Below are positions 6,624-39,494 of a DNA stretch of 64,000 nt, piece after piece. The notes below the pieces were generated by a model, which saw nothing but the letters and a program-made list of their open reading frames with translations, was not told where the DNA came from and did no database searches. The translations under genes and the position numbers were made by a program. Each line of letters starts with the position of its first letter. The stretch's first letter is position 1. This DNA comes from Strigamia acuminata. Its lineage: Eukaryota. Location of the stretch: the NCBI GenBank assembly GCA_949358305.1, contig OX442314.1:5704001-5768000 (forward strand), given 5' to 3'.

Positions 6624-7805
6624 TTTGTGGCATTGTTTACAATTTTCAAATCAAAATTTCACAATTACACAAGTTCAGACAATTTTTCCAAATTTTTCCA
6701 ATTGCCATTATATTTCGATTTGCGTTGTTGCAAAAACTATTTTGTGATGAGTAAAATGCCTTTTGAACCTCCAGCACATCTCACAATCTAAACTCTACAG
6801 CGAAGGCAGAAATAATAGAAAAAGCAGAAATTCATGTACCATTTAAACTTCCGTATCTTATTTCATTGTACGATATAATTGTACGTTAAACATTAATAAA
6901 TCTGCTTCGTTTTCGTGTTGTTTCATTGCGGTGCCAGCATTCGTTCTTTATCATTTAAAAAAAAAACTAGAAACGCATTTTTTTCTGTGAGGGACAGAAC
7001 ATCTAAATCAGCTATCGCAAGTAAACGGTTGTCAAGTCGTTTCTGCCACGCGGTTGCCCATTTTATATCGCCCACCGGACGTTGTAAAAATAATTTAAAC
7101 AGTTGTAAAATTCATCTAACCTGCTTGTTGGGTGTATTTTGTGCCCAGGAATTGATTGCCATTGATGGTTTGGTGGTCCCAAATGATCTAGAGGGTTGAG
7201 ACCACATCTCGGACAGGTGAGATTTCCGAGGGTGGTTTTTCGGCCATTAGTGTCTATCTCGCATTTTTTATGACGTCATGTATCCAGAATTTGGGGTTTA
7301 ATTCTATTTTGAAGCGATTTTAAAATCTGTACGATAATGAATAAATGTTTCATTAATTTTAGTATTATTTGATGTTTTGAAATAATGAATACGTTACGTG
7401 GAATGTATTTAGAATTAATATACAGGGTGTCCCAAAAGTCTGAACCACCCCAAATAATTTCCAAAATACTTGAGATATCAGAAAACTGAAGAAAAACTCA
7501 TAGGGGAAATCTTTCATTGCAAATCTGATGGGATCCTCAAATTTGACCTCAAAGGTCATTTTCAAGGTTATTCACTTGCTAACTTCTAAACCAATCAGGT
7601 TAGAGCAAAATTTCCAATTACTAAGTTGTAGAGAATCATCTAATTAGTCTAGAACCGTTCTTAAAAAAATTATTTCTTACGGAAAGGTTTTGAGAAAAAA
7701 AGGTTTGAAATGTTAGTCTACTCAGCTTTGTAACTCAGCTTTTTAACTTAAAACTATTGAGGCAACCAAGCTAATCCTCAATTAGGACACTTTATTGGGT
7801 CATAC

Positions 7806-8625
7806 TGTGGTGACCCAGTTGGATAAGTGTCCCCCCAGGGCGGATACTTGTCCTATGAGTCACTATGATTAAAGAGTCGTTCCCCCCCGAGTTGGCTCCA
7901 CCTCCCCATGGCAGGTGTGTGCCCCGAGGGGGAGGAAGCGGCTGGTGGTCAGCCCCCATTGGTTGATCGCCGGCCCTTCACCCCACTGCATAAAAGGCTG
8001 TGTTTCCCGCCTAAAGACAGAACTTACACAAACGACACCAAGAACACAGCAACTACCTCACCGTCAGGCCAACTTCAACTACAAGTTAGGATTGATCGAG
8101 GATCGCTGAGTAAAGTGCAAACTGTAACTCTCACGAAGTCACTTGCGAGCTATTCCTGCGAAAGCACGAGAATAGCCCTTGTGAAATCACCCAGAATAAT
8201 CGCCCAGACGATTATTCGCCGAAGTAAGTGTCCGAGTGCTTTGTAGGGAACCCCAAAGTTCCTAGACGAGGCCTCTGCGACGCTAAACAAACCCTAGACA
8301 ACAGGCACGGATAGAAGACTCGAAAGAGCATTCCACCGCGTCCGTGAAGACGAATCCGTGACGAATTAACGACAACTCGAGACGCCGCCTTTGTTCCGCC
8401 GACCACGCGGAATCGACGACGCCATCTTGAGAAATCCTTTGTTCGACGCTGACCACGTCGACTCTAGAATTATTACTGAGTGTATTTTAAAGGCATAAAG
8501 CCTGGTGAATAAATTACCTGTTTATTTACATACATTTGGTATTCATTTGGGTATTTACATAATTGATCACAGGTAAAGTATTACACGTTAGCGCTATTTA
8601 AACCTATACCAAGTAGGACGCGACA
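7806..8625 (+). repeat. Element A 5' LTR
   Basis: TGTGGTGACCC...GACGCGACA; appears identical to 19854-20673; CATAAAA ~7989, AATAAA ~8508. Confidence 0.97.
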
Positions 8626-8627
8626 CG

Positions 8628-8645
8628 TGGGGGTCTGTCCGGGAT
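8628..8645 (+). promoter_or_regulatory. Element A primer-binding site, tRNA-Pro-like
   Basis: TGGGGGTCTGTCCGGGAT, 2 nt after the LTR; close to the tRNA-Pro PBS TGGGGGCTCGTCCGGGAT. Confidence 0.8.
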
Positions 8646-8719
8646 TTAGAAATAAATCTCAAATCTGAACTTGTGATCTCTCAATAAGATAACCCAAATC
8701 GTAGAATTACCGAAAGAAA

Positions 8720-11700
8720 ATGTCAGACAAAGACGAGCAATCCACGTCTGAAACCGAGCAGAGAATGCCCGAGAAGGGAAAAAGGACCTCCGACTACCAC
8801 CTGAGATCGGATGGTCCCGTCCCTGAAATGTCCGCAAAGGCGAAAGCCCGAGCGAATAAAAGGAGAGCGAAGGCGCAGAAAGAGGAGCAAGCTGCATCGC
8901 TCGCGGCCCTAGACGGGCCAGAGCGAGAGCGGGTTCCCTTGAATATGCAACCCTTCGAGGATACCGATCCGGAAGCCATAGAAAATCGAGAAGAAATTCG
9001 CGACGTATCGCCAGGACGAGTATCGATATTGATGACCGAGGAGACGAATGAAGCTCCGAAAATAACGGTCACGGTCGGCACGAATCCATCGCCACCCACG
9101 GCTCAGACGTCCGTGGAGCAAACCCCACGAAAAAACGACGGCGGGACCCCGATAACCCCCCGAGTTACGGCGAGTCCTGCGGTTGTTTCCTTCGAGGTAT
9201 CTCACCTAATTCGGTTGACACGGCAAGCTGCCCAACTGAAAGCGATGATAGACATTCCAGTAGGAACGTCAGTCTGGGAATCGATTACTCTACTCACTGA
9301 CGCTATCTGCGCGGCACAAGCCCCGACGCCGGTCGCAAGACCAGCAGCGGAGACGCCCATGCCCCAGGTAACGCCCAGTGACACCGGAGGTTTCGCGCCA
9401 GACCCCAACCGGGCACTTCACCAATCCAGAGAGAAGGCCCGCGAAGAAGCCAGACAAGAAGCGACTAATCGCCAACGAAGACTGAGCGCAGAGCGGCGAG
9501 AACTCTGGAAGGAAGAGGAAGAAAGGGAGCAACGCGAAAGAAGAACCACCGAGAGAACAGAAAAACTGGTCCAAAAAATGAGGGAGGAACGAGAAGCTAA
9601 AATTCGAAAAGAATGGAACGCCACGGTGGAAGGGCGACATCGAGAAGCTCAAGAGTACGAGGACCAATTTCAAGCGCTCGTAGCTCAAAGAAAAGCAGAA
9701 AAGCTACAAATGTTGCGAGAAGAAGCCATTTTACAACACCAAAAATGGGAAGAACAACATCGCGAGAGGTTGAGAGAAGAGGAAGCCAGAAAAGAAAAGG
9801 AACAGTTCCTGAAAGAGAAAGAGGAATGGGACCGAGTCAGATGGACCGAAGAGTACAAAGCAAAGAAACAAGCCATAATAGATGAGCAAAAAAGATGGGA
9901 AGCCGAAAACTGGGAGAAAGAAACAGAAAAGTTCCAAAAAGAGTACGAACAAGGTGTCTCGGGCAGGAAGAAAAGGGAAGAAAACCCGAAACGGAAGTCA
10001 GAACCCCCAAGCGGCTCTGATACCGACACAGGAGAAGATGCAGCAAAGCCGGCAAAAACGGCAAAAAGGGGGAAATCTCAAAAGAGAGACGGATCGGTCC
10101 CAAAAACAAAGGACCGTCACCCCTCAAAAAGATCCGAGACGGGAGCAGCCATCGACGCGTTACTCGAAAAGAAAAACGCAAATAAAAATCGGGAACGCCC
10201 CGAAAGCGAGGAAAACAGATGGCATTCTTTTTACGAGAACAACGACGGAGGGGAGCCGCCGCCATCCGGAGGCTCGAAACAGAAGAAGGCTGGCGGAGAG
10301 ACCCCACCGAGAGGGCCGAGGTTTCACCCCCAAGGAGATCCCTCCGAGCCCTCCGATTCGTCGGACGACGACCATCCGAGTCGACCGTCTACAGGGAGGA
10401 GTCAAGAAGACAGCGATGGGCACCGGTCGAACCGGCCGAATGCTTCAGACCGCTCCTCCCGGAGCTCCAACCCTCGTTCGGAGGAAGGGAACTTTCAGGA
10501 CTCATCTGACCGACATTACACGATGTCTGAGCTAGGCCGAGCCCTGCTGAACTCTTTCAGAAGAGAAGGAATAGATCTAGGCCATCCAGGCGACGAACAT
10601 AATCGCGCCGGAGAGAGGGTTAAGCGCAAATATGGCGTACGAAACGAACCAAGCAGCGAAGCCACGGGTAACATCCGTTGGCAACACTACATACAAACAC
10701 GATTCGACGGTTCGTGGAAGGCCGGAGACCGCTTCCTAGACGAAGTAATGCGTATCAAGAAAGCGACAAAAGCCACCGTCGCCGACATGCTAACCCACGG
10801 TCTAGTGGAGCTAACCACGGGGTCAGCTCGAGAATGGTATCAGGGACTGAAAAACCCAACCTGGGACGATTTTCTCGTCCGTTTCGATCTCCGATACGGC
10901 GAGACTCCAGACGAGATCAGTAACAAATTACGTGGTCTACGGCAAGCCCCAGGAGAAACATTAGCCGACTACGACGCCCGAGCGAAACTCCTGTTTGCAA
11001 GAGCGCCGTACGAAATAAACCCCGCTGGTTTTACGATGATCTTTTACGGAGGATTATCGGCCCACTCGCAAAGAATTCTGCTAGACATGCGTGCACCCCG
11101 CACTGGCGATTACCAAGATGTCAGTAACTATCTTCTAACAAACACGTTAGAAATAGAACAGCGGTATTACGCCACTCTGCCCCCGGAAGAAGCTGACGCG
11201 CACGAGAAACGGTTGCAGACGAGCGCCGAACGCCACAAGACCTCAGAAAAATTAATGAGGCCAAGTGAATATTTGAGCGGCATAATGAGTCTCACCGAAG
11301 CATCCTTCGGACGAATGCTGACGCCTAAAGCAGGCAGTATTCTTCCAGCCAACCCGATAGCTGCCCCAAAGAAAGCACCGGCAGCGACGGCGATGCAGGT
11401 GACCTCGACGGACTCCACCCAGATGGAGAAAGTCGAAGAGACAACACCTCTCGCCACGGCTAAAGAAGAGGAGCCAGCATCGAGCGACGAGGAAGCCCTA
11501 AATGAGCACCTCGAAAACTTATCGACGGGATGCGACGATCAAGGTCCCTATTTGCACCATGCACACCGGGCCTTGGCAATCACACAATTCAGAGCACACG
11601 TGCAAGCAACAAAAGCGAGAGGAGCATTGGGAGGAAAAAGACGATTCCCGACGCCCTTCGTCCCGAAAAAACCGGGATTCACTCCCACAGGGGATAAAAG

Positions 11701-11860
11701 TAACATCAAATGTTACAGCTGTGGAGAATACGGCCACTACTCAGATAAATGTGAGAAAACCGTCAAAGAAAAGGACATCATGCAAACCATGATGAAAATG
11801 ATGATGGAGTTAAGAACTGATCTGGCAAAAAACTTCCAAGCGCAGGCGTCGCCGAAATAA
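8720..11860 (+). CDS. gag: Element A Gag (1046 aa; long coiled-coil N-terminal extension, capsid-like domain, CCHC knuckle)
   Basis: GSAREWYQGL..WDDFLVRFDLRYG retrotransposon-gag motif; CYSCGEYGHYSDKC. Confidence 0.92.
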   Translation: MSDKDEQSTSETEQRMPEKGKRTSDYHLRSDGPVPEMSAKAKARANKRRAKAQKEEQAASLAALDGPERERVPLNMQPFEDTDPEAIENREEIRDVSPGRVSILMTEETNEAPKITVTVGTNPSPPTAQTSVEQTPRKNDGGTPITPRVTASPAVVSFEVSHLIRLTRQAAQLKAMIDIPVGTSVWESITLLTDAICAAQAPTPVARPAAETPMPQVTPSDTGGFAPDPNRALHQSREKAREEARQEATNRQRRLSAERRELWKEEEEREQRERRTTERTEKLVQKMREEREAKIRKEWNATVEGRHREAQEYEDQFQALVAQRKAEKLQMLREEAILQHQKWEEQHRERLREEEARKEKEQFLKEKEEWDRVRWTEEYKAKKQAIIDEQKRWEAENWEKETEKFQKEYEQGVSGRKKREENPKRKSEPPSGSDTDTGEDAAKPAKTAKRGKSQKRDGSVPKTKDRHPSKRSETGAAIDALLEKKNANKNRERPESEENRWHSFYENNDGGEPPPSGGSKQKKAGGETPPRGPRFHPQGDPSEPSDSSDDDHPSRPSTGRSQEDSDGHRSNRPNASDRSSRSSNPRSEEGNFQDSSDRHYTMSELGRALLNSFRREGIDLGHPGDEHNRAGERVKRKYGVRNEPSSEATGNIRWQHYIQTRFDGSWKAGDRFLDEVMRIKKATKATVADMLTHGLVELTTGSAREWYQGLKNPTWDDFLVRFDLRYGETPDEISNKLRGLRQAPGETLADYDARAKLLFARAPYEINPAGFTMIFYGGLSAHSQRILLDMRAPRTGDYQDVSNYLLTNTLEIEQRYYATLPPEEADAHEKRLQTSAERHKTSEKLMRPSEYLSGIMSLTEASFGRMLTPKAGSILPANPIAAPKKAPAATAMQVTSTDSTQMEKVEETTPLATAKEEEPASSDEEALNEHLENLSTGCDDQGPYLHHAHRALAITQFRAHVQATKARGALGGKRRFPTPFVPKKPGFTPTGDKSNIKCYSCGEYGHYSDKCEKTVKEKDIMQTMMKMMMELRTDLAKNFQAQASPK

Positions 11861-11878
11861 ATTCAGCTTCGTCTGCGC
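11827..11878 (+). promoter_or_regulatory. -1 ribosomal frameshift signal of element A
   Basis: In-frame A_AAA_AAC (11827-11833), 6-nt spacer, stem GCGCAGGCG/CGTCTGCGC; pol is in the -1 frame and open from the slip site. Confidence 0.85.
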
Positions 11879-14800
11879 CAGCCGCGGAAATTAAAAAGAA
11901 GAAATATCACACTGGACCCGCAGGTCATGCCTTGGCAGAGGCACAGATCAAAGACCGCATACAGATCGTTCCGAAGAAGGAGGAAAAAGTGACGTTAACG
12001 AGTATGCAAGTGAGAACGAAACCGGAGGTCGACATGGATTGGACGGACCTTCCGTTCAATCTGGAGGTTGAGCCCCAGACATTACGCGTATTTCACTGCA
12101 ATGTCACGAAAGCACATTGCGAAACTCTGTGTATGCTGCCAGTGGAGATAGAAAACCAAAAATTGTTCGGTCTACTGGATTCAGGAGCGGATCGTTCATT
12201 CATATCCGAAGATATAGTAAAAGACTTGGATATTGGAAAGAAGGTGGCACAAGTGAACGCGAACGTAGAATTGCTCACCGCCAACGGCTACGTCAAGCCG
12301 AAGGGCGTAGTTCGCATCATGATCGACTGGACGGGGGGGAACCTGTCCCACCCCTTCATAGTCTTGCCATCCCACGACAAAGTATTCCTCCTAGGGATGG
12401 ACATCATGGCGAAACTGAAAATTCAGCCAAACCCGATAACCCGTTCATGGAACTGGATAAGTCCCGAGGGAGAACGGTCAGTCCCCGTAGTTCCCCAAAA
12501 ATTACTGGACGAAGCCAAGGACAAAGAGGAATACGGAAGAGGATTGCGAAAATTCGTCCAAGATTACGATTTCGCAGCCTTCACTCTGGAATTACAGAGG
12601 AGTAACGTCGTGGACACCCTGGTCGAGGAGGCAGCACTGCGTGTTAACGAGGCATCGCTACTAAGGCGAGTGCTTCGAAAGCATGAAAGAATTCTGACCA
12701 AGACACCTGGTCGAACGACGGAAGCAACACACGAAATAGTCTTGACCACAGACAAGCCGATTCGAGTGCCTTACAAGGGGATGAACCCCCAGAAAAGAGA
12801 CATCGTGACGCAAATGTGTCAAGACATGCTCGACAAGGGCATAGTAACGCAAGCCCTGGGCGAATACGCCATGCGGATCGTCCTGGTGATGCGTCCAGGC
12901 TCGGAACCTCGACTATGCATTGATTATCGCCCCCTGAACGCGATAACGGTTATAGACCCGATTCAGATGCCGTCTATAGACTCGATCCTCCGGGAACTGA
13001 GCCCGTTCAAGTGGGTAACCACCATGGACCTGTCAAAGGGGTATTGGCAAGTGGAGCTAAAACCCGAAGACAAACTGAAAACGGCTTTCTACTCCCCGAT
13101 AGGAAGACTAATGTTCAACGTGATGCCGTTCGGGCTTGTAAACGCCCCGAGCACGTTCCAGAAACTGATCGAAAGCGTGTTGGGAGATATGCTGCACGAC
13201 TTCGTGTGGGCGTATCTCGACGACATCATAATAACGTCGGACACATTCGAAGAACATATAGACCACATCGATAGAGTGGTCTCTCGCCTAGCCAAGGCAG
13301 GACTCCACATCCATCCAGGGAAGAGCAAGTTTTGCAGGAAAGAGCTTGCCTTCCTAGGATATCGAATAGGAGTCGAGGGAATCGCGATTGACCCCGAAAA
13401 AGTCAAAGCAATAAACGGATTCCCCGCCCCCGAAGATATAAAAGGTGTCCAGAGATTCATGGGCATGGTCAATTTCTTCGGCCGACTACTCTCTGGTCTG
13501 GCTGAAGTGGCCGCGCCTATAACGGATCTCTTACGAACGGATAAAGAGTTTGAGTGGACGGTCCAGTGCGAGGCCGCATTTAGCACTATCAAGCAAATGC
13601 TGGCTGACGTCGAAAAGATGCCATTGCCGGACCTAAACCGACCGTTCGTGTTGCACACCGACGCGAGTAAAATCGGACTGGGTGCAGCCCTTCTGCAGAC
13701 CCACGTGTACAACGGAATCTCGCAAGAAGTACCCTGTATGTTTATAAGCAGAAAAATACAGGGCGCGGAGAAAAATTATACGGCAACGGAACTAGAATGC
13801 CTAGCCGTAATTTGGGCAGTTCGGAAATTTCGCGACTATCTGGAGTACACGAACTTCGAGGTTCAGACAGATCACCAGGCACTAAGCTGGTTGATGAAGC
13901 TCAAGGAACCCTCCGGCCGACTCGCACGATGGCAACTGGAGTTAATGGCGTGCGATATAACAATTACGTACCGCCCCGGGAAGTACAATCATGTGGCCGA
14001 CGCCCTCTCGAGAGCCCCAGCCTCTGACCCCCAGGGACCAGACGACGACGGCGAGGACGACACCCACCTCTTGTACTGCCCGACTCCACGGAGAATATGG
14101 CGTTTGCGAAAGGCGAACGAGCTACCAGTGATGGAGCCTGAAGATAGAACGTTTTGTGGTTTTTGGACTCGAACATACCAGCCAGCTGGGACAAACAATT
14201 CAACATCCGAAATTCAATCTCCGCCCCCCGGAGAAACCCACAAAACACTACTACGCGCCTTCACAGCAAAAATTGAAGAAAAAACACAATACGCTCCACC
14301 CACGAGACGTGAGTTCGTCGAACACCAGGCAGCAGACACAAAATGTCAAATTATAACGCAATATTTGCTGAACGGCGAATTTCCGGAAGGGATGACAAAC
14401 CCACACCGCCGGAAACAGTTCGTCAAAGAAGCAACAAGCTACCTCATAGATGATGAACTCCTGGTAAAATACCACCCGACGTTTCAAGATGACCTCAGCG
14501 GAGCGGGAAACTCGGTTAAAGTGGTCGTGCCGGCATCGCTGCACACCCGACTGTTGTGGCTGATGCACGGACACCCGCTCGCCAGCCATTCTGGCGTGGC
14601 GAGGACCCTTTATCGAGTAAAACAACTTTTCTTCTGGCCGGGCGCGCGGCAAAAGATAACGAAATTTATCCGACACTGCCCCCGGTGCCAAGCATGCAGA
14701 CCGCGAGATAAAGTAGCCAGAAACGCCATGTCTCTCGGACCCTACGCACCGTTTGACTGCTTAAGCATAGACTTGATGGGCCCCAAGCCCACAACGGGAA

Positions 14801-15963
14801 ACAAGAACATGTATATTCTCGTAATTATGGACGTGGCCACCCGATGGCCGGAGCTGTACGCCCTCGCGAAGCCCTCGGCTGAAAACATAGTCGAGTGCCT
14901 TTACGACGTGGCAATGCGATTTGGGTTTCCCAGAAAACTCATTTCGGATAACGGCCCCCAATTCCGATCAAGAATATATAAGGACTTCTGTAGGAAATTT
15001 AAAATGGATGCATCGAACACCTCCACATATAATCCTCAGACAAACCCAGTCGAGAGATTAAATAAAGATATAAAATATGCGCTGACAGTATTCACCGACA
15101 TTCACAATCGATGGGACGAATACCTGCGAGAAATCGCTTTCAGCATTCGCTCAACCGTGTCACGAACACGCGAATTCTCACCGGCGTACCTCAACTTCGC
15201 CCGCGAATTAAGGATGCCATGGGACCCACGCGTTGCCGAAGCTGTTAACGTATTAGACCCGTCGAGCCCACATGAGTACGTGTGCCGGTTGGAACAGACT
15301 ATATCCGACACGTACCAGCATATGATGGCGCATATTTTCAACATGAGAGAGAGAATCGCAGATAAAGAAGGCGATCTCGCTTTCGCGAACTTTAAAGTGA
15401 ATGATCTAGTGTGGAAGGAGGCACACACGTTGTCCAATGCAGCGAGGGGCATCGCCGCCGGTTTAGCCGACAAGAGGGACGGTCCCTACGTAATTGTGGC
15501 CGAACACGGAGGCAACGCATACCAACTACGCCGCCTAGAGGACAACAAAAATTTTCAGTCGATACATGGCCGAGATTTAAGGCCATATCTGCCAGAATTT
15601 CCACAGGAAATTTGGCTGGAAGGTCAGACACACAGCGGCCAAGGGGGCACCGTGGTCGACACGTTCCAAAAAACAAATGAAGCTGAAAATATAGCGGAGA
15701 ACGAGGATGAATTCTTCGACGCCAAATCCCCAGCCGACGAGGCTCCAGCTCAGCCGGAGCAAGCAATTTCGGAGAGGGAGGAAGCAGAAGAATGTACTTC
15801 TGAAATGGAAAATAAAAAAATTAATAATGAGAAAAATGCCAACACATCGGAGATGAACGAGCAAGTAGAGTCACGATCTACGAGCACGTCGAAAATCAAC
15901 CTTCGACCACGACGAAGCAATAATCCGTTCATTCGGGACGGCAAAGTCGTGGGGAAGAACTAA
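11833..15963 (+). CDS. pol: Element A Pol (protease, RT, RNase H, integrase), expressed by frameshift
   Basis: LLDSGAD; YLDD; HTDAS/ELECLA/TDH; HHCC; SIDLMG..SDNG..VERLN; GPY motif; Gypsy domain order. Confidence 0.97.
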   Translation, partial: LPSAGVAEINSASSAPAAEIKKKKYHTGPAGHALAEAQIKDRIQIVPKKEEKVTLTSMQVRTKPEVDMDWTDLPFNLEVEPQTLRVFHCNVTKAHCETLCMLPVEIENQKLFGLLDSGADRSFISEDIVKDLDIGKKVAQVNANVELLTANGYVKPKGVVRIMIDWTGGNLSHPFIVLPSHDKVFLLGMDIMAKLKIQPNPITRSWNWISPEGERSVPVVPQKLLDEAKDKEEYGRGLRKFVQDYDFAAFTLELQRSNVVDTLVEEAALRVNEASLLRRVLRKHERILTKTPGRTTEATHEIVLTTDKPIRVPYKGMNPQKRDIVTQMCQDMLDKGIVTQALGEYAMRIVLVMRPGSEPRLCIDYRPLNAITVIDPIQMPSIDSILRELSPFKWVTTMDLSKGYWQVELKPEDKLKTAFYSPIGRLMFNVMPFGLVNAPSTFQKLIESVLGDMLHDFVWAYLDDIIITSDTFEEHIDHIDRVVSRLAKAGLHIHPGKSKFCRKELAFLGYRIGVEGIAIDPEKVKAINGFPAPEDIKGVQRFMGMVNFFGRLLSGLAEVAAPITDLLRTDKEFEWTVQCEAAFSTIKQMLADVEKMPLPDLNRPFVLHTDASKIGLGAALLQTHVYNGISQEVPCMFISRKIQGAEKNYTATELECLAVIWAVRKFRDYLEYTNFEVQTDHQALSWLMKLKEPSGRLARWQLELMACDITITYRPGKYNHVADALSRAPASDPQGPDDDGEDDTHLLYCPTPRRIWRLRKANELPVMEPEDRTFCGFWTRTYQPAGTNNSTSEIQSPPPGETHKTLLRAFTAKIEEKTQYAPPTRREFVEHQAADTKCQIITQYLLNGEFPEGMTNPHRRKQFVKEATSYLIDDELLVKYHPTFQDDLSGAGNSVKVVVPASLHTRLLWLMHGHPLASHSGVARTLYRVKQLFFWPGARQKITKFIRHCPRCQACRPRDKVARNAMSLGPYAPFDCLSIDLMGPKPTTGNKNMYILVIMDVATRWPELYALAKPSAENIVECLYDVAMRFGFPRKLISDNGPQFRSRIYKDFCRKFKMDASNTSTYNPQTNPVERLNKDIKYALTVFTDIHNRWDEYLREIAFSIRSTVSRTREFSPAYLNFARELRMPWDPRVAEAVNVLDPSSPHEYVCRLEQTISDTYQHMMAHIFNMRERIADKEGDLAFANFKVNDLVWKEAHTLSNAARGIAAGLADKRDGPYVIVAEHGGNAYQLRRLEDNKNFQSIHGRDLRPYLPEFPQEIWLEGQTHSGQGGTVVDTFQKTNEAENIAENEDEFFDAKSPADEAPAQPEQAISEREEAEECTSEMENKKINNEKNANTSEMNEQVESRSTSTSKINLRPRRSNNPFIRDGKVVGKN

Positions 15964-16342
15964 AAATAAAAGAAAATGTGATAACATGGAGCGGAGGCCT
16001 TGTAAAATAAAAGATTTACTTACGAGAGCTGCTGCACATGTTGAAACGCGAAAATTTGGCTAAGTCCAAACTTCGCAACGAATTGTCGCAGTCACCACTA
16101 ACAGACGAGAAGTTATGACGTATCGGGCGACCACGTGACAATGAAACCACGCGGTCGACCCCGTAGCGTCATTGCCAGCACGGCGGATCTCGCAAAATAC
16201 GAGACGCGTTCGAGACCCACAATTCTCAGCGTCGATAGGCCCAGTTTCCGACTGTTTTTAACACGACGAGACGTGTTTTTGCTTCTCCCCCAAAGAGAAA
16301 GACAAAGACCTCTCAAACAAAACTTCATTTTCCTAAATTGAA

Positions 16343-16459
16343 ATGGCCGATCGACGCAACCCACGATTAGAGCCGAGCGCATCGTCGAGAGACGAGAGCG
16401 ACGGCCTAATCGTAAATGCAGAAGACGATGAGAATTGGGACGAACAACCGCCGTTGCAG
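16343..16459 (+). CDS. Element A ORF3, predicted exon 1 (39 aa, ...DDENWDEQPPLQ)
   Basis: ATG at 16343; donor CAG|GTAAAT in phase 0; DENWD motif shared with exon 1 of element B. Confidence 0.7.
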
Positions 16460-17019
16460 GTAAATTAGTGTGATTTCCCCAGAGAAATCACATAATTCTT
16501 TGAATCTGTTGCATCCAACCCAGATTGGAGCGTGACTTGTGACTGATATATTTCTTTCTGTTTTATTATTGATTTAAGGCTGGCTAAAAACCCGAGAGTG
16601 GACCCAGATTCACCTCGGAGTCAAGGCCGCCAAAAAACTAGAACAAAGGAAGTGTTCGCGGAATGGCGTCGTGGCAAACCAAAACCAAAACTAAAGGTTT
16701 TCTTTCTTTTAAAATTAAACATCGTAATAAATTAAAATACGATTAGAGTTAAAATAAAAAGTTTAACGTAATATTAAGAATTTAACGATCGGTTTTGCCT
16801 GCGACCCCTTCCTAAAAAGCGGATCACCTGAGTTCAAAGGTAGTGTTGGATCAGCGCTACGACGGCGGAGATCATCGCAGAACTGCGAAACAAGAAAATA
16901 AGACCGACGGCCGCAACAAAAGAAAGGAGTTGCTGCCACCGTCGATCTTGAGCATATTTCTGATCCCCATCGTTAAACTGGGATTTATTATATTAATCTT
17001 GTGATCTAAAATTATTCAG

Positions 17020-19806
17020 GTCGACCCGCTAGAATCGTGGGACGCCCTGCCTTCGACGGTGTCAACCGCCAACAACATCTTTCGCGGAGCCCTGCCGATT
17101 TACCTGCGGCAGGCCTATCCTGCAGAGACCAGCGCCTGGAAAATCCGATTGATGTACTCCAGGACCCTCGAGGAAAAATTCGAGCGATCGAAAACGCTGG
17201 TCGAGTGCATGACGAAGGAGATGAGGGAGCGAGTGGGGCCGCGGATCCCACCCGATGCGGATCCGCCGAGCCCCGTTTACTCCGGGTACCTGGAAGAGGC
17301 TTACCCAGGCACGGTGGCCGAGCTGCACACCTCCCACAGGTGGAGCGAGGCCCCGACCTTGGCAGCCCGCCAGAAAATAGTGGACGACGAGATCGAACGC
17401 TTAAAGCGCACCGAGACTCACGGAGTAACCCGAGTTCTCGAGAGAAACGGTTTCTCCCCCGAAGAAATCCGTAGATGGCTTCGCGACATCGAAGAAGACC
17501 ATTTGACACCCAGATGGATACCACCGGCGAATTTTACGGCCACGCAGTCTGAGATGTGGCAGTTATACCACGCTGGTATCCTGGGAAGTCGCCGCCATCA
17601 CAGAAGATCGAAGCGTCCGGCGGAGTCCGCCCCACGCGGACCCGCACGAAGAAGACAGGCCGTCTCCCCAACAGAGGCCGGCCCGTCAACGAGTCGCGAC
17701 TACCGCAGCCGCTCGAGCAGCTCCAGTTCCCGAACTCGAGTTGTCGTGCGCTCGGAGTGTCGCCGAGTAGTAACGCTCGAGCCTGCCTCGCCAGACGACA
17801 CGCGGGCTGAGCGAACGGTCGAATCTTCCGCCCACTGGGCTGCGAGGACCGAGACACACCAAGATCGAGGAAAGAAAAGATCCTCGTTGTTTATGGCGAT
17901 TACCACACAGTCGTCAGATCAATCCTCGTCGCGACGAACCGTCTCAACACACCAGAGACCTGATTCCCCGACGGACGTCCCCCAGAGGACGGTCCAACGA
18001 AGATCCGTCGCAGCCAACACCAGGAGGAATCGGAAGCGTAAAGTACGACAGAAGACGCGTGCGCGGTCTCTGATCGCGAAAGGATTGGAGAAAGAGCGAG
18101 AGATGGCCGCCGCAAAAAGGTCCGAACCCCGAAGTCTCGGATCCGCGGCTGGGCCGTCCAGGCTCCAGGCAGAGATTGATTTGGGAGAATTGACGGAAGA
18201 ACAAATATCCCAAGAAGAGTCGGACAAGGATGGACCGGTCACGAAACAAGATCTGGCCATGGCATTGAAGAACGCCTTCCGAGGATACGCGGCCAACCGG
18301 CCGTCGGGCTCAACACCGGCTGTGCCCACCGCGCTTGTGCCCCCACAGGTGCAATCGCGATGGCCGCCACTCCTCGAGGGTACAAACCCAGCAGTGACCA
18401 CGTGGACCCCTCCCCGGATGATTCCGGTGGGAGATCCAACTCCCAAACGGGTCAGATACGACGACCTACCAGGGATGGGCCGTCCACCGTCACCCCCGAC
18501 GCCACGAGTGTACCATCCTCATCGCAACGCCGAGTGGTACGCGCAGCGGGAGATGGACGCCAGATGCCGGCGTGAAGCGGCCTATCCCCCACTCAGCGAG
18601 TTACAAGAATATCTGGCCGAATACGAGAACCCCGCGATTGCCGAGTTGGCCATACGACAGGCCGACGCCGCCCAAACTCACCACATCAACTGGGCGATCG
18701 AACAGATGCGGACGTTGTCACAACAATTCAGTGACAATCCGGACCGCGCTCACCCCTGCCATCGGAGCAGTTTGAATTTGGCTGTGACGAACGTACTGGC
18801 CCAGCTGCTATCCCTGGGCGTCTTCTTGGACAGTCGGCAAGCTATGGCGGCCTGGACAATCGTCGACCGTGAGGGAGTTCACCTTCCTCGGGCGTTGTAC
18901 CAGGTATGGGCCGGATGGACTCCTGAGCCCGCCTCGCTGCGCTTCGACCTGGCCAGAAATACGGAAAACCCAGGCCTACAGTTTTCAAAGATGCGTTCGT
19001 TAGCATTCCGCTACCGGAACCCCGGAGTCCACCCTTCCTTGTTGCGAACAATTCGGGAGGTTCCGGAGATACCGGGAACGGCGGCGAGCCTTCCACAGGC
19101 CATCGAGACCGCCCCCCCAGAGGCGGCGGTCCAACCATACATACCGACCCCAAAGCCGGTATTCCCGAAGGAGAAGCGACACGCGAATCGACCCATATTG
19201 ATTCCGAAGCGTTCCAAGCGAGGACCCCGAACTCCTCCGCTGCCCTCTCCTTCACCACCAGCGGCAGGGCTGGCCGCTCTCTCTGCAGAGCCGGCTACGC
19301 CACCGTTGGAGAGCCCAATGGAGATTCCGCTCCCACCATCGCCTCCGCCGCCCCCAGCAGCGCAGCTTTATTTGAGGCTGGGAGTGGAATACCCCTTCCT
19401 TCAGATGTCGGAGTTCACGCGACAACGCATCATTGACTCCGACGATCACGGCGAATCAATCCTCAAATGGCTAAACAGAGAAGCCCGATCCACCATGGAC
19501 GCCGTCTTCCATCGCCGTATCCTACGGGCCCACAGGAAACCCGGATCGAGCGCCGAGTCGCGAAGGATCCGACTCGTCCCCGATCGATTCCCCGCGTCTA
19601 CCCGGATTTGGATCCATGAGCGTACGGGGTTGGTTGGCGAGCCAGCCGGCAGTCACCCGCAGTACTTCATCAACGAGCGACAAAATCCTGCGGATCTGAC
19701 AACCTCTCTGCCCCCGGATTTACCACCGCCGCCACCGGCAGTGCCACCCGTGATCCTCCGCCCATGCAGAGGAGTGCTGCCGGCTCTTCGCAGAGGAGAG
19801 CGATGA
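17020..19806 (+). CDS. Element A ORF3, main exon; uncharacterised non-Env protein (~967 aa spliced)
   Basis: Acceptor TTATTCAG|GTC at 17019; long open frame with no nearby ATG (track start is GTG); homologous to element B ORF3. Confidence 0.8.
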   Translation, partial: VDPLESWDALPSTVSTANNIFRGALPIYLRQAYPAETSAWKIRLMYSRTLEEKFERSKTLVECMTKEMRERVGPRIPPDADPPSPVYSGYLEEAYPGTVAELHTSHRWSEAPTLAARQKIVDDEIERLKRTETHGVTRVLERNGFSPEEIRRWLRDIEEDHLTPRWIPPANFTATQSEMWQLYHAGILGSRRHHRRSKRPAESAPRGPARRRQAVSPTEAGPSTSRDYRSRSSSSSSRTRVVVRSECRRVVTLEPASPDDTRAERTVESSAHWAARTETHQDRGKKRSSLFMAITTQSSDQSSSRRTVSTHQRPDSPTDVPQRTVQRRSVAANTRRNRKRKVRQKTRARSLIAKGLEKEREMAAAKRSEPRSLGSAAGPSRLQAEIDLGELTEEQISQEESDKDGPVTKQDLAMALKNAFRGYAANRPSGSTPAVPTALVPPQVQSRWPPLLEGTNPAVTTWTPPRMIPVGDPTPKRVRYDDLPGMGRPPSPPTPRVYHPHRNAEWYAQREMDARCRREAAYPPLSELQEYLAEYENPAIAELAIRQADAAQTHHINWAIEQMRTLSQQFSDNPDRAHPCHRSSLNLAVTNVLAQLLSLGVFLDSRQAMAAWTIVDREGVHLPRALYQVWAGWTPEPASLRFDLARNTENPGLQFSKMRSLAFRYRNPGVHPSLLRTIREVPEIPGTAASLPQAIETAPPEAAVQPYIPTPKPVFPKEKRHANRPILIPKRSKRGPRTPPLPSPSPPAAGLAALSAEPATPPLESPMEIPLPPSPPPPPAAQLYLRLGVEYPFLQMSEFTRQRIIDSDDHGESILKWLNREARSTMDAVFHRRILRAHRKPGSSAESRRIRLVPDRFPASTRIWIHERTGLVGEPAGSHPQYFINERQNPADLTTSLPPDLPPPPPAVPPVILRPCRGVLPALRRGER

Positions 19807-19841
19807 GAAAATTGAGATCGCTCCGATCCGAGATCGAAGCT

Positions 19842-19851
19842 GGAGGAGGGA
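19842..19851 (+). promoter_or_regulatory. Element A polypurine tract
   Basis: GGAGGAGGGA just before the 3' LTR. Confidence 0.85.
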
Positions 19852-19853
19852 CG

Positions 19854-20673
19854 TGTGGTGACCCAGTTGGATAAGTGTCCCCCCAGGGCGGATACTTGTC
19901 CTATGAGTCACTATGATTAAAGAGTCGTTCCCCCCCGAGTTGGCTCCACCTCCCCATGGCAGGTGTGTGCCCCGAGGGGGAGGAAGCGGCTGGTGGTCAG
20001 CCCCCATTGGTTGATCGCCGGCCCTTCACCCCACTGCATAAAAGGCTGTGTTTCCCGCCTAAAGACAGAACTTACACAAACGACACCAAGAACACAGCAA
20101 CTACCTCACCGTCAGGCCAACTTCAACTACAAGTTAGGATTGATCGAGGATCGCTGAGTAAAGTGCAAACTGTAACTCTCACGAAGTCACTTGCGAGCTA
20201 TTCCTGCGAAAGCACGAGAATAGCCCTTGTGAAATCACCCAGAATAATCGCCCAGACGATTATTCGCCGAAGTAAGTGTCCGAGTGCTTTGTAGGGAACC
20301 CCAAAGTTCCTAGACGAGGCCTCTGCGACGCTAAACAAACCCTAGACAACAGGCACGGATAGAAGACTCGAAAGAGCATTCCACCGCGTCCGTGAAGACG
20401 AATCCGTGACGAATTAACGACAACTCGAGACGCCGCCTTTGTTCCGCCGACCACGCGGAATCGACGACGCCATCTTGAGAAATCCTTTGTTCGACGCTGA
20501 CCACGTCGACTCTAGAATTATTACTGAGTGTATTTTAAAGGCATAAAGCCTGGTGAATAAATTACCTGTTTATTTACATACATTTGGTATTCATTTGGGT
20601 ATTTACATAATTGATCACAGGTAAAGTATTACACGTTAGCGCTATTTAAACCTATACCAAGTAGGACGCGACA
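19854..20673 (+). repeat. Element A 3' LTR
   Basis: Direct repeat of 7806-8625 at offset 12048. Confidence 0.97.
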
Positions 20674-21070
20674 ATACTTGTAAGTAAAAGAGAGGAAACA
20701 CAAAAGAAAGGAAATAATATATTTTGGAAATACATTCCACATGATAGTTTTAGGTTACAAAGCTGAGTAGACTAACATTTCAAACCTTTTTTTCTCAAAA
20801 CCTTTCCGTAAGAAATAATTTTTTTAAGAACAGTTCTAGATTAATTAGATGGTTCTCTACAACTTTGTAATTGAAAATTTTGCTCTAACATGATTGGTTT
20901 AGAAGTTAGCAAGTGAATAACCTTGAAAATGACCTTTGAGGTCAAATTTGAGGATCCCATCAGATTCGCAATGAAAGATTTCCCCTATGAGTATTTCTTC
21001 AGTTTTCTGGTATCTCAAGTATTTTGGAAATTATTTGGGGTGGTTCAGACTTTTGGGACACCCGTGTATA

Positions 21071-21835
21071 CAGGGTGTCCCAAATGAACGAAGCCAGTCA
21101 AATATTTCCTGAGCAATTGCATCTAGGCCAACTTTGATGAAGCGATCATATAGAAAGTTGGGTGAGAGCAATCCAATGATGTCATCAAATTTGACCTTGA
21201 AGGCGATTTTCAAGGTCATTCACTTGCTAACTTCTAAACCAATCAGGTTAGAGCAAAAAAGTCAATTACAAAGTTGTAGAGCACCATCAAATTAGTACTA
21301 TCCAACTTATCTTAGTTATCTTAAGTTAAATGTTTTCTTTTTAAAAAGGAGACAAATCAGCTGAAATAAAGCCAGCCATTATGACAAAACTTAAATTTCT
21401 ATTACAAAAATATTGAATTACTTAAATAAACGTATTCAAATTTGCATCATTATGCAAGTAAACAAGAAAAACCACTGCCTTTTTTTTAATGCTCAATAAT
21501 TATTTTATCACAAGAATAAAAAATTTCACTTTGCTGATTTTTTTTCTGATTTGTCTCCTTTTTAAAAAGAAAACATTTAACTTAGGATGACTAAGATAAG
21601 TTGGATAGTACTAATTTGATGGCGCTCTACAACTTTGTAATTGACTTTTTTGCTCTAACCTGATTGGTTTAGAAGTTAGCAAGTGAATGACCTTGAAAAT
21701 CGCCTGCAAGGTCAAATTTGATGACATCATTGGATTGCTCTCACCCAACTTCCTGTATGATCGCTTTATCAAAGTTGGCCTAGATGCAATAGCTCAAGAA
21801 ATATTTGACTGGCTTCGTTCATTTGGGACACCCTG
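21071..21835. mobile_element. Tc1/mariner-type foldback MITE (765 bp, ~290-bp arms)
   Basis: CAGGGTGTCCCAAATGAACGAAGCC ... GGCTTCGTTCATTTGGGACACCCTG; TA flanks; shares an internal segment with the 7423 MITE. Confidence 0.9.
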
Positions 21836-22470
21836 TATATAATGCCGGACTTTAGATTTCCAAGATGCGTGATTGGCTAAAACTTGTGCTACGCCTATTT
21901 CACAGTATACTGTAGCCCATTCGGAGTGTGTAGGGGTTTTGAAGTATCCTATTGTTTTCTACGAGTTGTTAGGTTATATTGGACCTTAAAAGGTCGTTTT
22001 CCTGTGATAAAGGATTGATAGCTACTTTACTTAGATCTATTCATGGATGTTTCAAAGTGTTTCCATGGAAGCTTTGGATGTACGTATTGTTTAAAATTAT
22101 CTTTTTCTGATTATGTTAGTTAATGTGTTTATTTTCTCGTTTCGATGCCGTTATATTGTTTCAGGCATGATTTGTGATTATTCTTGCTGTTTTAAAGATG
22201 TTAGATTTTACTAATAAAAAACACTAAGAAATAATAAAATGCACTAAAAACACTAAAATAACAACAAAAACACCAAAAATAAAAATTTTAAATCACATTT
22301 CTGTAATTATAGAACCGACATAAAAAGAAACGCCAGACTTAGGTACTTACATTTTTTTATTTTGCATATTTTTATACTGTTTGTTGCATAAAATAAAAAT
22401 TTTGGTGCATAGTTAATGTGCATAAAAACAAATTGTGTGTTTGCATAAATACCTGCTTTAGTAATGCTTA

Positions 22471-25912: not shown

Positions 25913-26908
25913 TGTGGTGACCCGACTGGGGTGGGGCACGAAGAGTTTCTCTCGTGGCCTACATACGGGTAAAGAAGGGGAGTCGCACGCGCGCCTCCCT
26001 TCCCTCAGAGCATTGACATCCAGTCAATGGACGGGCGTCTGCCCTGGGGGAGTGGGGGAGATTCGTCTTCTCCACTATTGGGTGGCTTTAGTCACCTGTC
26101 ACCCCCCGCTTTGTGCAAAGGAATTCGCCTTGCACTGAGCGGGCAGAACCAACACAAAAATCAACCAAGATACACGTAAAAGCCAAACGTCCTAAAACGA
26201 TCAAGCCTAAGTACAAAGACTTCAGGAGTGACCTAGGACAAGGGACTTTCAACGTGAGTACGATTGATTTGTGTTAACCTCCGCAGAGTAACCTGCGAAA
26301 CAAGATTACCACACTATTTTAGCAAGCCAGCTAGAAATAGTAAACCTACTCCAATTTAGCGAGTTGTGCAGACAAACGGTCGCACAAGCCTAAATTGCAG
26401 TAACCACGACGAGCGTTCCCGCCGCTGTGTGTATCGCCGGGAACCACCAAGCGTCCGCCGCTGTGTGATCGCCGGACACCTACAAAAAACCCTAAACCTA
26501 GACAACAGACCAGAAGTAAGACCTTTCAGGCATTCACTCGCGCCCGACCAGCGTGAGCCCGAAGGACCGAACGAGAAACGTGAGACGAGGACGCCATTCA
26601 TTGCCACGCCGGCCCAAGACGACACCACGTTGCCACGCGGACGCCATCTTGGATCCACAGCGACAAAGGACGACCTCGACCAGTTTCCCGCCAACTTCAC
26701 ACCCCTTTCCTTTTACCTTTTTATTCCCTTACATATTTTATTCCCTTTTAACTGTATATTCCCGTATAATAAATACATTTATTATATTTACCTTTTACAT
26801 TGTCTTGCCGTGTTACATTATTTGGGTAACCGCTTGAGTAAAGCGGTATTGCGAGATCAGAGAGTGACTCATACCACGTATCAGCGACAGACCGAGTTGA
26901 GCGCGACA
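25913..26908 (+). repeat. Element B 5' LTR
   Basis: TGTGGTGACCC...GCGCGACA; repeated at offset 21954. Confidence 0.97.
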
Positions 26909-26976: not shown

Positions 26977-29937
26977 ATGGCAGACAATATCCGAGTAACG
27001 GATTCCGACTCCGACGCGAACAAGAGAGCCGGCAGTCGTAAAGGCGCCGACTATCACTTGCGATCTGGAGGTCCCTTACCCAAAGCCTCAGCGCACGAAG
27101 CGAGGCAAAAACGGCGCAAGCCTAAACCCGATCGCAGAAGCGCATCAGAGGCATCGCACCCGTCTCGTTCCGAGACGAGGCAGCGATTGGACGAGACAGA
27201 GCGGGGTGAAGAGCAATCTCACTCCAAACTGCCGCGTTCTAACCGTGACGGCGAGACGAGCGGAAACGAGGTTTTATCCCGTAACCCATCGCCTCGTCTA
27301 ACGCACGACACCGAGGTGGGCAGTCCGAAAGCGGCGTCTCCGATACAAAAGACGGCCTCAAACACGACAGCTAATTCGGCACTAAACACGCCAATTACGC
27401 AAAGCCGCCCAGCTTCGGTCAGGTCCGAAGGACACAAGTCCAATGCGTCAAAAACTGAGCGTGTTCCGAGCCAGCCTTACAGCGTCTCGGCCACATTGGT
27501 TGACACGATGCAGTTGGCACAGGCAGAAGGTGTACGATACACTCTGCCAACGGGAAAAATAACTGTGTACGAAACATTACAAATCGTACGTGCAGCTTTA
27601 AGAGCGCACAGGTTATCCCCGGAAATCACCGTTGTTGAAGGCGCATACGCTCAACAAATGGTAGACTCCGCTCAATTCGAAGCGGATGCCGAGAATGAGG
27701 CCCGACAAGCCATCCGCGAGAGAAAGCGGAAGCTGGCGGAAAGAGAAGCGCGAGCTCTCGAGTACGGCAAATCCCAGCGCGTTCCGACTACTCCAGAAGA
27801 AGTCGAAATAGTTGATCGAGCCTTACGTGCACATCGTTATGCATTCCGTTCTCAACAAGAAGCTGAACAAGCTTTCATGACTAGGCTGCAACGAGACAAA
27901 CCAAAATCCGTTAGCAAGCCAGAAGTTAGCTCGTCCGAATTGTCCGACGAGAGCGTCGAAGGCGACCCGAAGCGCACGCCGAAGGTCAGCCCCAAACCCG
28001 AGCGAAAAAAGGAAGTGCCAGTCACTCCACGCAAACGGGAAGTCTCGACCGAACAACGCGTTCGACCTCGCATGATGGCGTTAGACGATAACACTAACAA
28101 CGCTATCAACCGATTAATAAATGCGAACAACGCGCGTCGTAACGAAGAACAGACTCACACGAGCCGACAACGCGACGACCCGCGGGGTAGCGACTGGCCA
28201 CAGCCGGTGCCCATCCTCAAAGACGACGGACCTTCGAGAAAACATTCCGAAGACCGCACATCGTCACGAGAGGAACGTCAACGCGAAAGAGGACAGCAAC
28301 AGTATCACTACGGAAACAGTGATTCGTCGTCGGATGAACTGGAGTCGAATGCACCCAGTCATCACGATTCGGAGAGAGGTTCCGGAGAAAGACGAAGGGA
28401 AAGAGAACGCGATGAACGCAGGGAAAGGGAACGTGACGACCGTCGTAGGGGCCGGAAAGAGTCAAACTCTTCACGGCGCAACCCGCCACGCCGCTCACCG
28501 TCTCCCGACCCCAGCTCCGACCCCTCGTCCAACGACGACAGACGAAATGATAAGTCAAGTAATCGCCGGAAGAGATCCAACTCTCCGCGCGATAGAGAGA
28601 AACGACGTCGATCGGAAAATAGCGACCACCGACGGGAGGAGTTTCAGGACCTTCCCCGACAAAGCGCGTTTACCGATTCGACGGGTCGGCAGTATACGAT
28701 GGGAGAGCTTGGAAGAGCCCTGCTTGGCTCGTTAAAAGCCGAAGGAATCGATCTGAGCAAACGAAATGATCGTAATCGTAACACTGGTGACCGCGTAAAG
28801 AAAAAATACGCTGTCTCCCGACGTGACACCATGAGTGTTACCGGGAATATTAGGTGGCAATTTTATATTCAGAACCGTTTCGACGGGTCATGGAAAGCGG
28901 GAGATCGCTTCCTTGACGAAGTAATTCGGATTAAGACTGCCACTAAAGCCACCGTAGGAGACATGCTCACCCACGGTATTGTCGAGCTAATGACAGGCTC
29001 GGCACGTGAGTGGTACCAAGGATTGAAAGGCGTCAATTGGGACGACTTTTTAATGAGATTCGACCTGCGCTACGGCGAGACACCCGAAGAGGTGAGCCGA
29101 AAGATGCGAGGTCTTCGCCAGATGCCTGGTGAAACCATAATGGATTACGACATTCGCGCCAGATTGTTGTTCGAAAAGGCCCCGATGGAATTTCATGCCA
29201 CGGGATTCAACCTTTTCTTTCTCGGCGGTTTGTCGGAATACTCGCAACGGGTGCTACTTGAAGAAAGGGCACCGACAGGAGGCAGCTACAAAGAAATGAG
29301 CGCCTTCCTGTTCGAGAACACGATAGATATCGAGAAGAGATATTATTCCGCTTTACCAGAAGCGGAGAAAGCAGCAACCGCTAAACGTCTCAAGTTGAGT
29401 GCGGAAAGATATGGGGCGACAGACAAAATCATGCGCCCTACTGAATATCTTAGCGGTATAATGGAGCTGGCAGAAGCTAGCGTTGGTTTACAAATAAAAA
29501 ATAAACTGACATCCACGCTGCCTTCCAACCCATTGGCCGCCCCTAAAAAGGCACCGACAGCGTCAGCCATGCAAGCGACACTGGAGGAGGTCAAGGAGGG
29601 GGAGGAAGCCGAACAAAATGTCGGAAAATCAGACGAAAAAGAAGAAAAAGACGATTATTCGACGGACGAAGAAATACGAAGCTATCGCGATACCTTATCA
29701 ACGGGTTGCGATGAGGAAGGACCGCTAGTACATCTCATCCATCGAGATAGAGCGGTAGAAGAATTTCGCGCCAGGTTAAAACCAAATGCCGGCCGAATTC
29801 CGAAGTATTTTCGAAAAAATTACACGCCACCGTCGAAAGTAGACCCTGAAAAAAAGAAATCGATTGAAGCCCCAAGAGACAAATCAAATATTCGTTGTTT
29901 TAAGTGTAACCAACCGGGTCACTATTCCAATGAGTGC
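26977..29937 (+). CDS. gag: Element B Gag, 5' part (to the end of the CCHC knuckle), interrupted
   Basis: ATG at 26977; capsid region highly similar to A Gag; CFKCNQPGHYSNEC ends at the TSD. Confidence 0.92.
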
Positions 29938-31851: not shown

Positions 31852-31853
31852 CG

Positions 31854-31871
31854 TGGAGGTCCCACCGAGAT
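31854..31871 (+). promoter_or_regulatory. Element C PBS1 (tRNA-Gln); second copy at 32089-32106
   Basis: TGGAGGTCCCACCGAGAT, the complement of the tRNA-Gln 3' end. Confidence 0.9.
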
Positions 31872-34800: not shown

Positions 34801-35039
34801 ACACACTAACGGAATAATTAAAAGAAAAATATTTTTTGAAGAAAAGTTATTTAATTATTTGGATTGGTAAAAATCCCAAAGTTCAAGAAGATTGAAGTAA
34901 GTTTATTTTATTTTCATTTGAAAAATACAATATTTTACGAATGTCTTCCCGAAGGAATTTTATTTTATCGGTAAAATTGAATCTCGAAGGGAACGGACTT
35001 AGTAGAGAACTACTAAATAGATGTAACGTCCTTTATACC

Positions 35040-35137
35040 ATTGGCCGACACTAACATCCGCCAATCAGAAGTTGGGAGATCTAGGGATCCCCAGCCCCCT
35101 GCTATTAAAGGAGGACCAGATCAGATACTGATCATTC
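35040..35137 (+). promoter_or_regulatory. Putative internal Pol II promoter of element C (CCAAT boxes, TATA-like box, Inr)
   Basis: ATTGG 35040, CCAAT 35061, TATTAAA 35103, TCATTC 35132 (TATA at -31 relative to the Inr A). Confidence 0.6.
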
Positions 35138-35379
35138 GCATCCAGACCAGACCAGAAGACGTGTTCCAGAGTCATCTTGACCACGCCGTCCCGATTTCAG
35201 TCACGATTCGAATTTTGTGTGCCGTGTAACCTGCAAAAGCTAACACGTGTCAAACAAACGCGAAGTTTAATTTTATTTTGTCAAAAGTAAAGTTTAGAAG
35301 TGTTTCTTGTTGAAAAGTGTATTATATTCGTCTTCTTTATAAATTAAAGAATTAAAATCGTCAGATTTTGAATTTTTTT

Positions 35380-39374: not shown

Positions 39375-39494
39375 CCAAGAACAGCGAAAGAAGACGCTAA
39401 GTTTGACGCGATAATGAAGCAGATGGCAGAGATTAAACTCGCCATGGCAAAAAACGAGTCAAAAAACGAGTCAGCGCAGGCGGCGAAGAAATAA
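39375..39494 (+). CDS. gag: Element B Gag C-terminal remainder
   Basis: PRTAKEDAKFDAIMKQMAEIKLAMAKNESKNESAQAAKK* rejoins in frame when C plus one TSD is removed, and aligns with the A Gag tail. Confidence 0.9.
   Translation, partial: PRTAKEDAKFDAIMKQMAEIKLAMAKNESKNESAQAAKK

Follow-up and report, generated by a model that had tools for sequence, protein, structure and literature searches.

This locus raises the question of how a retrotransposon gene that lies behind pol, and that starts in a short exon of its own, comes to be expressed and to keep an intron. The window analyzed here is a 64,000-nucleotide (nt) stretch of DNA from Strigamia acuminata (assembly GCA_949358305.1, contig OX442314.1, positions 5,704,001 to 5,768,000 of the forward strand; coordinates below are those of the window, on its plus strand unless stated). 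It holds two Ty3/gypsy elements, A (7806 to 20673) and B (25913 to 48862), which represent two families. The reading that we favor, with some reserve, is that behind pol both families have a third gene, conserved and not an Env gene, in which splicing of a GT-AG intron likely links a short ATG exon to an exon of 930 to 950 codons; its product is predicted to regulate, in the nucleus, the RNA of the element itself.

Exon layout behind pol

Element A carries, behind pol, an ATG-initiated frame of 39 codons encoding an acidic peptide (16343 to 16459), and element B carries one of 31 codons (44069 to 44161). Both encode the pentapeptide DENWD (at 16427 to 16441 and at 44117 to 44131) and end at CAG|GT in phase 0, exactly where a preliminary description of this DNA had placed them. 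Each is followed by a predicted GT-AG intron, of 560 nt in A (16460 to 17019) and 801 nt in B (44162 to 44962), and then by a main exon of 928 codons in A (17020 to 19806) and 954 codons in B (44963 to 47827), the latter with ATG as its first codon. The long frames stop 48 nt (A) and 40 nt (B) short of the 3' long terminal repeat (LTR). The gaps had been called AT-rich, and they are (61% and 63% AT): the GC content is 56% (A) and 50% (B) before the gap, 39% and 37% within it, and 61% after it.

The donors read CAG|GTAAAT in A and CAG|GTAGTA in B, both in phase 0, and ranked first among 53 GTs in A and 67 in B when scored with a generic matrix. With the same matrix, the acceptors at 17019 in A (...ATTATTCAG|GTC) and 44962 in B (...CATTGCAG|ATG) came third among 76 AGs and second among 80, respectively. 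A branch-like TTAAT lies at −26 in both, and the AG-free zone before the acceptor spans 65 nt in A (the longest) and 63 nt in B (the third longest). The sequence thus has what is expected of a spliceosomal GT-AG intron, with a GT donor, a branch-like motif, an AG-free zone, a YAG acceptor, and a frame that is kept. Of the pyrimidine-rich CAG acceptor described earlier, the CAG stands, while the site in A is AT-rich rather than pyrimidine-rich; and homology between A and B, said to resume at the first codon after the acceptor, starts at codon 5 in both (BLASTP). In A, the main exon has its first ATG at codon 45, and a stop five codons upstream of the acceptor shuts the frame, so that, with homology running from codon 5, A needs the splice. 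The frame of the mini-exon is itself shut by a stop 9 nt (A) or 66 nt (B) upstream of its ATG, and in A it is therefore no continuation of the gag or pol frame. Left unspliced, the mini-exons would give open reading frames (ORFs) of 41 and 52 amino acids (aa) that are acidic and not membrane-like.

The layout of mini-exon, donor, and intron as a whole exceeds chance. Among 2,000 dinucleotide shuffles of both pol-to-exon-2 intervals, 45 gave an ATG..AG|GTR frame in phase 0 in both, one of these with a common 4-mer and none with a common 5-mer; DENWD is the sole 5-mer in common between the sense frames of the real intervals. The pol products of A and B share 63 to 65% identity, and their four-fold sites have nearly saturated (identical at 22 of 81 in reverse transcriptase and 16 of 79 in integrase), which argues that the features common to A and B behind pol have been kept by selection. 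DENWD resembles acidic-tryptophan short linear motifs that bind Arp2/3, kinesin light chain, or PH domains, a possible lead for the retention of so tiny an exon.

Variation among family A copies was read from DNA contigs of two runs of one study (201 and 443 contigs over 16200 to 17250), which cover family A only. All 12 indels listed (of 14) fall in the leader or the intron and none in coding sequence, and the GT and AG are untouched by all seven substitutions listed. Of the two mini-exon substitutions, both of them third-position changes, one is silent and the other turns D into E; across the third gene, 7 of 10 coding substitutions are synonymous among the rows listed (40 of 554). Among the 12 of 35 loose ends listed, the match to one relative begins at 16341, two bases before the ATG of A, and that to another at 17015, inside the A acceptor, both with unlike sequence upstream, so that conservation turns on at both predicted coding starts. 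No intron-less joint was found in the contigs over this interval or among the 15 of 48 joints listed; contigs drop rare variants, and absence from the family is not implied. A membrane-like reading of the 3' end of the A intron was ruled out, since its frame is shifted by the loss of one base at 16975, which is the majority state in one run. Within the intron, a GC-richer stretch (16817 to 16928) is about 90% kept in a relative with diverged flanks (11 differences and 2 gaps in 112 nt); it is a possible cis-element that could make loss of the intron costly. The conserved intron with its own ATG mini-exon, as proposed in the preliminary description, is well supported by the sequence, the cross-family comparison, and the within-family variation, and we consider it likely that the small intron is spliced.

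Elements A and B have the structure of Ty3/gypsy elements, with TG...CA LTRs, a target duplication, a primer-binding site, a polypurine tract, and gag followed by a pol that encodes protease, reverse transcriptase, RNase H, and integrase. In A, the LTRs are 100% identical (5' LTR of 820 bp, 7806 to 8625, with AATAAA at 8508; 3' LTR, 19854 to 20673, with the polypurine tract just before it), and the target duplication is ATAC (4 bp). The primer-binding site (8628 to 8645), which we take to be tRNA-Pro-like, has 26 of 27 nt in common with B, the LTR end included. A long gag with a zinc knuckle (8720 to 11860) precedes pol (11821 to 15963, −1 frame). In B, the identical LTRs of 996 bp (25913 to 26908 and 47867 to 48862) are flanked by the target duplication AAGT, gag (26977 to 29937) is broken near its end by a nested 9.4-kb element, C, and pol (39437 to 43588) is again in the −1 frame. 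Among database proteins, the nearest to this pol reach about 45% identity in the best alignment. In both integrases, a long acidic linker that has diverged is followed by a short, conserved terminal tail, NPFI.DGKVVGK (15920 to 15963 and 43545 to 43588).

The third-gene protein

The predicted products have 967 aa (A) and 985 aa (B). Three blocks are conserved, at about codons 5 to 190, 500 to 665, and 785 to 890 of the A main exon, with 30, 46, and 40% identity between A and B and with second- versus third-position identities of 0.55/0.34, 0.66/0.42, and 0.67/0.48. The linkers between them are basic, serine/arginine-rich, proline-rich, and disordered, with basic clusters in both A and B, and models of two of the three blocks are all-helical (pLDDT 59 and 71). 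Neither a signal peptide nor a C-terminal membrane anchor was found in A or B by a hydropathy scan and Pfam (no dedicated signal-peptide predictor was used). The N terminus is acidic, and the proteins have one N-glycosylation sequon each and 5 and 11 cysteines. Because it has no signal peptide or anchor, a single sequon, and its only hydrophobic peak inside a predicted helical bundle, the third-gene product is not Env.

Pfam has no family for this protein. A homologue search with the third ORF of A (ORF3 A) returned none among 7,985 candidates, and a search with the middle-block alignment none among 7,990, restricted to proteins of 901 to 2,570 aa. HMMER on 1.84 billion proteins gave two matches, one of which (P0121) was dropped as a tandem-repeat artefact. 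Protein T1IVY2 of the centipede Strigamia maritima matches ORF3 A codons 547 to 641, approximately (18667 to 18951), without gaps over 95 residues (28% identity, E = 7e-4). It is the one credible relative, and a weak one, hinting that the middle block may occur in myriapods; a further search from this homologue gave no usable match. Scans of IMG/VR and JGI with the ORF3 blocks found nothing, and an integrase query in the same scans found none in IMG/VR and two distant loci (31% and 25%). Sequence searches of PDB gave weak rows only, a kinase (E = 0.0065) and a phage immunity repressor (E = 0.11, at positions 115 to 159 of the N block), the latter at most a lead for a helix-turn-helix, and none with the C block. 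Nothing stood above background in fold searches (best Z of 5.1, with a root mean square deviation [rmsd] of 2.7 over 60 aligned residues, and Z of 8.0 to a designed helical bundle, with an rmsd of 2.9 over 91) or in BFVD (E of at least 0.68). The idea that the N and middle blocks are repeats of one another was ruled out (probability, 0.2%).

Routes to the ATG exon and a possible role in RNA export

A candidate 3' splice site lies upstream of the mini-exon in both elements. In A (16257 to 16295), it consists of TTAAC, a pyrimidine tract, and an AAG that ends 48 nt before the ATG and ranked first of 76 AGs; in B (43990 to 44021), a weaker candidate has TTAAC, a T-rich tract, and an AAG that likewise ends 48 nt before the ATG, with further AGs beside it at −51 and −40. 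Of all AGs that lie between pol and the ATG, the AAG at −48 is the richest in pyrimidines (first of 20 in A and tied first of 25 in B), TTAAC lies 31 to 37 nt upstream of it in both, and the two regions align. In the family A contigs, a relative has a CAG-type site at this position. The LTR leaders, measured from a guessed start at a CAGAAC common to A and B, are without ATG over 702 nt (A) and 833 nt (B) and contain canonical donor-like sites, GAA|GTAAGT at 8224 and CAG|GTAAAG at 8573 in A and AAC|GTGAGT at 26254 and GAA|GTAAGA at 26516 in B. We give about an even chance to an mRNA with its start in the 5' LTR and two splices, the first joining an LTR donor to the AAG acceptor at −48 and the second removing the small intron. 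In this three-exon mRNA, the ATG exon, 164 nt long in A and 140 nt in B, would be internal and of an ordinary kind.

Such a spliced mRNA would be without the primer-binding site and could not be copied, and the unspliced RNA would serve as genome and as gag-pol mRNA. That the spliced form is not reverse-transcribed would explain why the intron persists. The earlier view of a gene wholly downstream of pol holds for the coding part only; like env mRNAs, its mRNA may well start in the 5' LTR, given the AAG at −48 and the donors in the ATG-free leader. That the intron is retained in genomic RNA, as had also been proposed, follows from its presence in young copies. Regulated splicing seems likely, yet it is less unexpected than was thought, since a subgenomic mRNA without a primer-binding site cannot be copied and the same is true of every spliced LTR-element gene, such as env and CERV.

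The spacer behind pol contains two short non-coding motifs that are collinear in A and B, 80 to 240 nt behind pol and 200 to 400 nt before the ATG. Motif 1 (16050 to 16069 in A and 43671 to 43690 in B) is the same at 19 of 20 nt (E = 2e-4) and is a candidate enhancer or RNA cis-element; motif 2 is 11 nt long in A (16157 to 16167), and its core occurs in B at 43743, 43790, and 43831. Sliding RNA folds gave some low z-scores, the lowest being −5.6 at 15960 to 16079 (25 shuffles). A hairpin over motif 1 in A was, by eye, not kept in B, and Rfam gave no match near gathering scores.

A tentative proposal, on which we would not bet at even odds, is that the protein acts like Rev or CERV and lets the unspliced, splice-site-bearing RNA out of the nucleus, possibly via the motifs behind pol. 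The proposal follows from the good splice sites of the genomic RNA, which must exit the nucleus unspliced, and from CERV, a protein of the Caenorhabditis elegans Ty3/gypsy element Cer1 that is needed for nuclear export of unspliced RNA (PMC10309623, in the portion relevant here). A nuclear role would fit the missing signal peptide, the basic clusters, and the three conserved helical blocks with disordered linkers, besides the CERV precedent. The main alternative roles are those of a transactivator or an anti-silencing factor.

Several points weigh against the reading that we favor. DENWD by itself is weak, some common 5-mer turning up in 1,019 of the 2,000 shuffles, and the mini-exon peptides are little alike beyond it (their local score was equalled in 880 of 20,000 shuffles). 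The B donor scores low in absolute terms (0.6 versus 5.1 for A). The B main-exon frame extends without a stop for 136 codons upstream into the gap and has in-frame ATGs at 44801 and 44843, and since this exon also opens with ATG, B can do without the mini-exon. AAG is an uncommon type of acceptor, and the upstream site of B is weak as well. The placement of indels among family A copies has a P value of 0.008 if placement is uniform and of 0.11 if the two unlisted rows are coding; homopolymers favor non-coding indels, and both runs stem from a single study that may be the source of the assembly itself. Splice and transcript start are both deduced from DNA, and the function is deduced by analogy.

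The same intron and protein could be expressed from an internal promoter in the spacer behind pol, which would make the third gene a self-contained two-exon unit. Its product, made ahead of LTR activity, could then serve in transactivation or against silencing, like foamy-virus Tas. In favor of this rival are the collinear motifs 200 to 400 nt upstream of the ATG, the ATG-free stretches of 201 and 224 nt right before the mini-exon ATG, an initiator-like TCATTT at 16325 in A, and the acidic N terminus and proline-rich linkers of the protein. However, a motif scan of the spacer found TATA in neither element and no initiator match in B, and the branch-tract-AG pattern at −48 in both would have no obvious reason. 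The available description of the Oikopleura Tor elements cuts both ways: the Tor4b env mRNA starts in the spacer after pol, but the internally started mRNAs are without splicing (PMC4402516). We regard an internal promoter as somewhat unlikely.

A less probable view, and one that we doubt, is that only the acceptor is real, the main exon being joined from a donor elsewhere (in the LTR or gag) or, in B, using its own ATG, with the DENWD frame a relic or a coincidence. The B exon opens CAG|ATG, strong donors are present in gag and pol, errantivirus env exons are joined to varied upstream exons in the account at hand (PMC12992720), CERV takes exons from gag, and DENWD alone, as noted, is not significant. 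Yet the ATG, DENWD, and a best-ranked phase-0 donor occur together in both families, a combination met in 0 of 2,000 shuffles, the similarity of a relative starts at the ATG, and no listed indel falls in the mini-exon. We hold it very improbable that the third gene encodes a diverged Env, or a fusogen, by which the element spreads between cells. The hydrophobic peak of the A middle block (1.75) would speak for it, but it lies inside a predicted helical bundle and the matching helix of B reaches only 1.39, and the acidic N terminus, the missing signal peptide and anchor, the sequon and cysteine counts, and the absence of a Pfam family all argue the other way.

Known systems, neighboring elements, and significance

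CERV has 517 aa, its first three exons come from gag, and it has H, M, and G-protein-like domains, according to the parts of PMC10309623 drawn on here. The third gene resembles it in position, in its likely spliced origin, and in a build of three parts, the function being shown for CERV and supposed here. It differs in that the start codon and all coding exons are behind pol, the product has about 970 aa instead of 517, the mini-exon is not gag-derived, and no G-domain or other fold match was obtained for two of the three blocks. By this analogy, the third gene would work most like CERV, but it is not a member, because the first exons of CERV come from gag. Errantivirus env-F is also a third ORF; its mRNA is spliced, in some cases from a short exon that codes for a peptide and lies in gag or upstream of it. 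As described in the part of PMC12992720 used here, a signal peptide, a furin site, and a membrane anchor characterize its product, unlike the protein here, which has no signal peptide or anchor.

The env genes of Tor3b and Tor4b offer, in the sections of PMC4402516 concerned, a spacer between pol and the third gene and a precedent for an internal promoter in gypsy, but the mRNAs that start internally there are not spliced, and their product is a membrane glycoprotein. Bdelloid and plant LTR elements often carry extra ORFs (PMC5408684 and PMC7264820), and sORF2 of MDG1 is a small unspliced fusogen (10.1101/2025.03.14.642691). As far as the relevant parts of these sources go, such ORFs are enzymes, coiled-coil or membrane proteins, antisense genes, and small fusogens, and none is described as having, on the sense strand behind pol, an intron and an ATG exon of its own. 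With main exons of 928 and 954 codons, the third gene is not a small single-pass fusogen of the sORF2 or FAST type. Rev, Rex, Rec, and Tas/Bet of complex retroviruses are made from multiply spliced or internally promoted mRNAs and have coding exons behind pol and introns in the genomic RNA. They belong to Retroviridae, however, and are small proteins, and no sequence or fold link to the third gene tested positive. Literature searches of openly accessible papers brought up none that describes, for an animal gypsy element, a sense-strand gene behind pol that has an intron and starts in an ATG exon of its own.

Further features of the window lie within or around these elements. Element C is present in two copies that are 98% alike, one nested in B gag (29938 to 39370) and one at 50876 to 60323; it is 9.4 kb long, with 1.9-kb LTRs and repeated PBS-like (primer-binding-site-like) blocks behind the 5' LTR, and has no gag or pol family match. 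Its single orphan ORF runs from an ATG at 35380 to 36861, with CCAAT-, TATA-, and initiator-like motifs at about 35060 to 35140. On the minus strand, a GC-rich orphan ORF of 495 codons (63905 to 61820), with a cysteine cluster and a basic N terminus, opens with CAG|ATG just after an acceptor that is AT-rich and has TTAAT, and the sequence GTAAGT at 63905 is its donor; a 598-nt intron in the 5' untranslated region is likely, its splice sites being in the style of A and B. Miniature inverted-repeat elements occur at 7418 to 7734 and 20754 to 21840, and A is inserted into one of them (arms 7425 to 7734 and 20754 to 21063). Tandem arrays at 2482 to 2861 and 49488 to 49759 have units of 20 nt and 10/21 nt.

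What is new here is the acceptor-like site 48 nt before both ATGs which, together with the LTR donors, suggests a three-exon mRNA. How LTR retrotransposons export unspliced RNA with splice sites is known for few elements, and the literature searched gave one gypsy-encoded factor, CERV. A family such as this, young and high in copy number, with its clean exon layout, its orphan protein, and its candidate cis-motifs, offers a second case that can be tested directly. It also shows that annotating LTR elements by their ORFs overlooks start exons that are joined by splicing, so that proteins of this kind would be cut short. In its widest form, which we hold to be somewhat unlikely, the proposal is that a gypsy lineage of invertebrates, probably arthropods, has independently come to a complex-retrovirus lifestyle, with a multiply spliced accessory gene, all of its coding exons behind pol, whose product, a protein of about 970 aa from a new family, would switch the element between spliced and unspliced RNA via conserved response elements in the spacer between pol and the third gene; this would be a second Rev-like invention in Metaviridae besides CERV.

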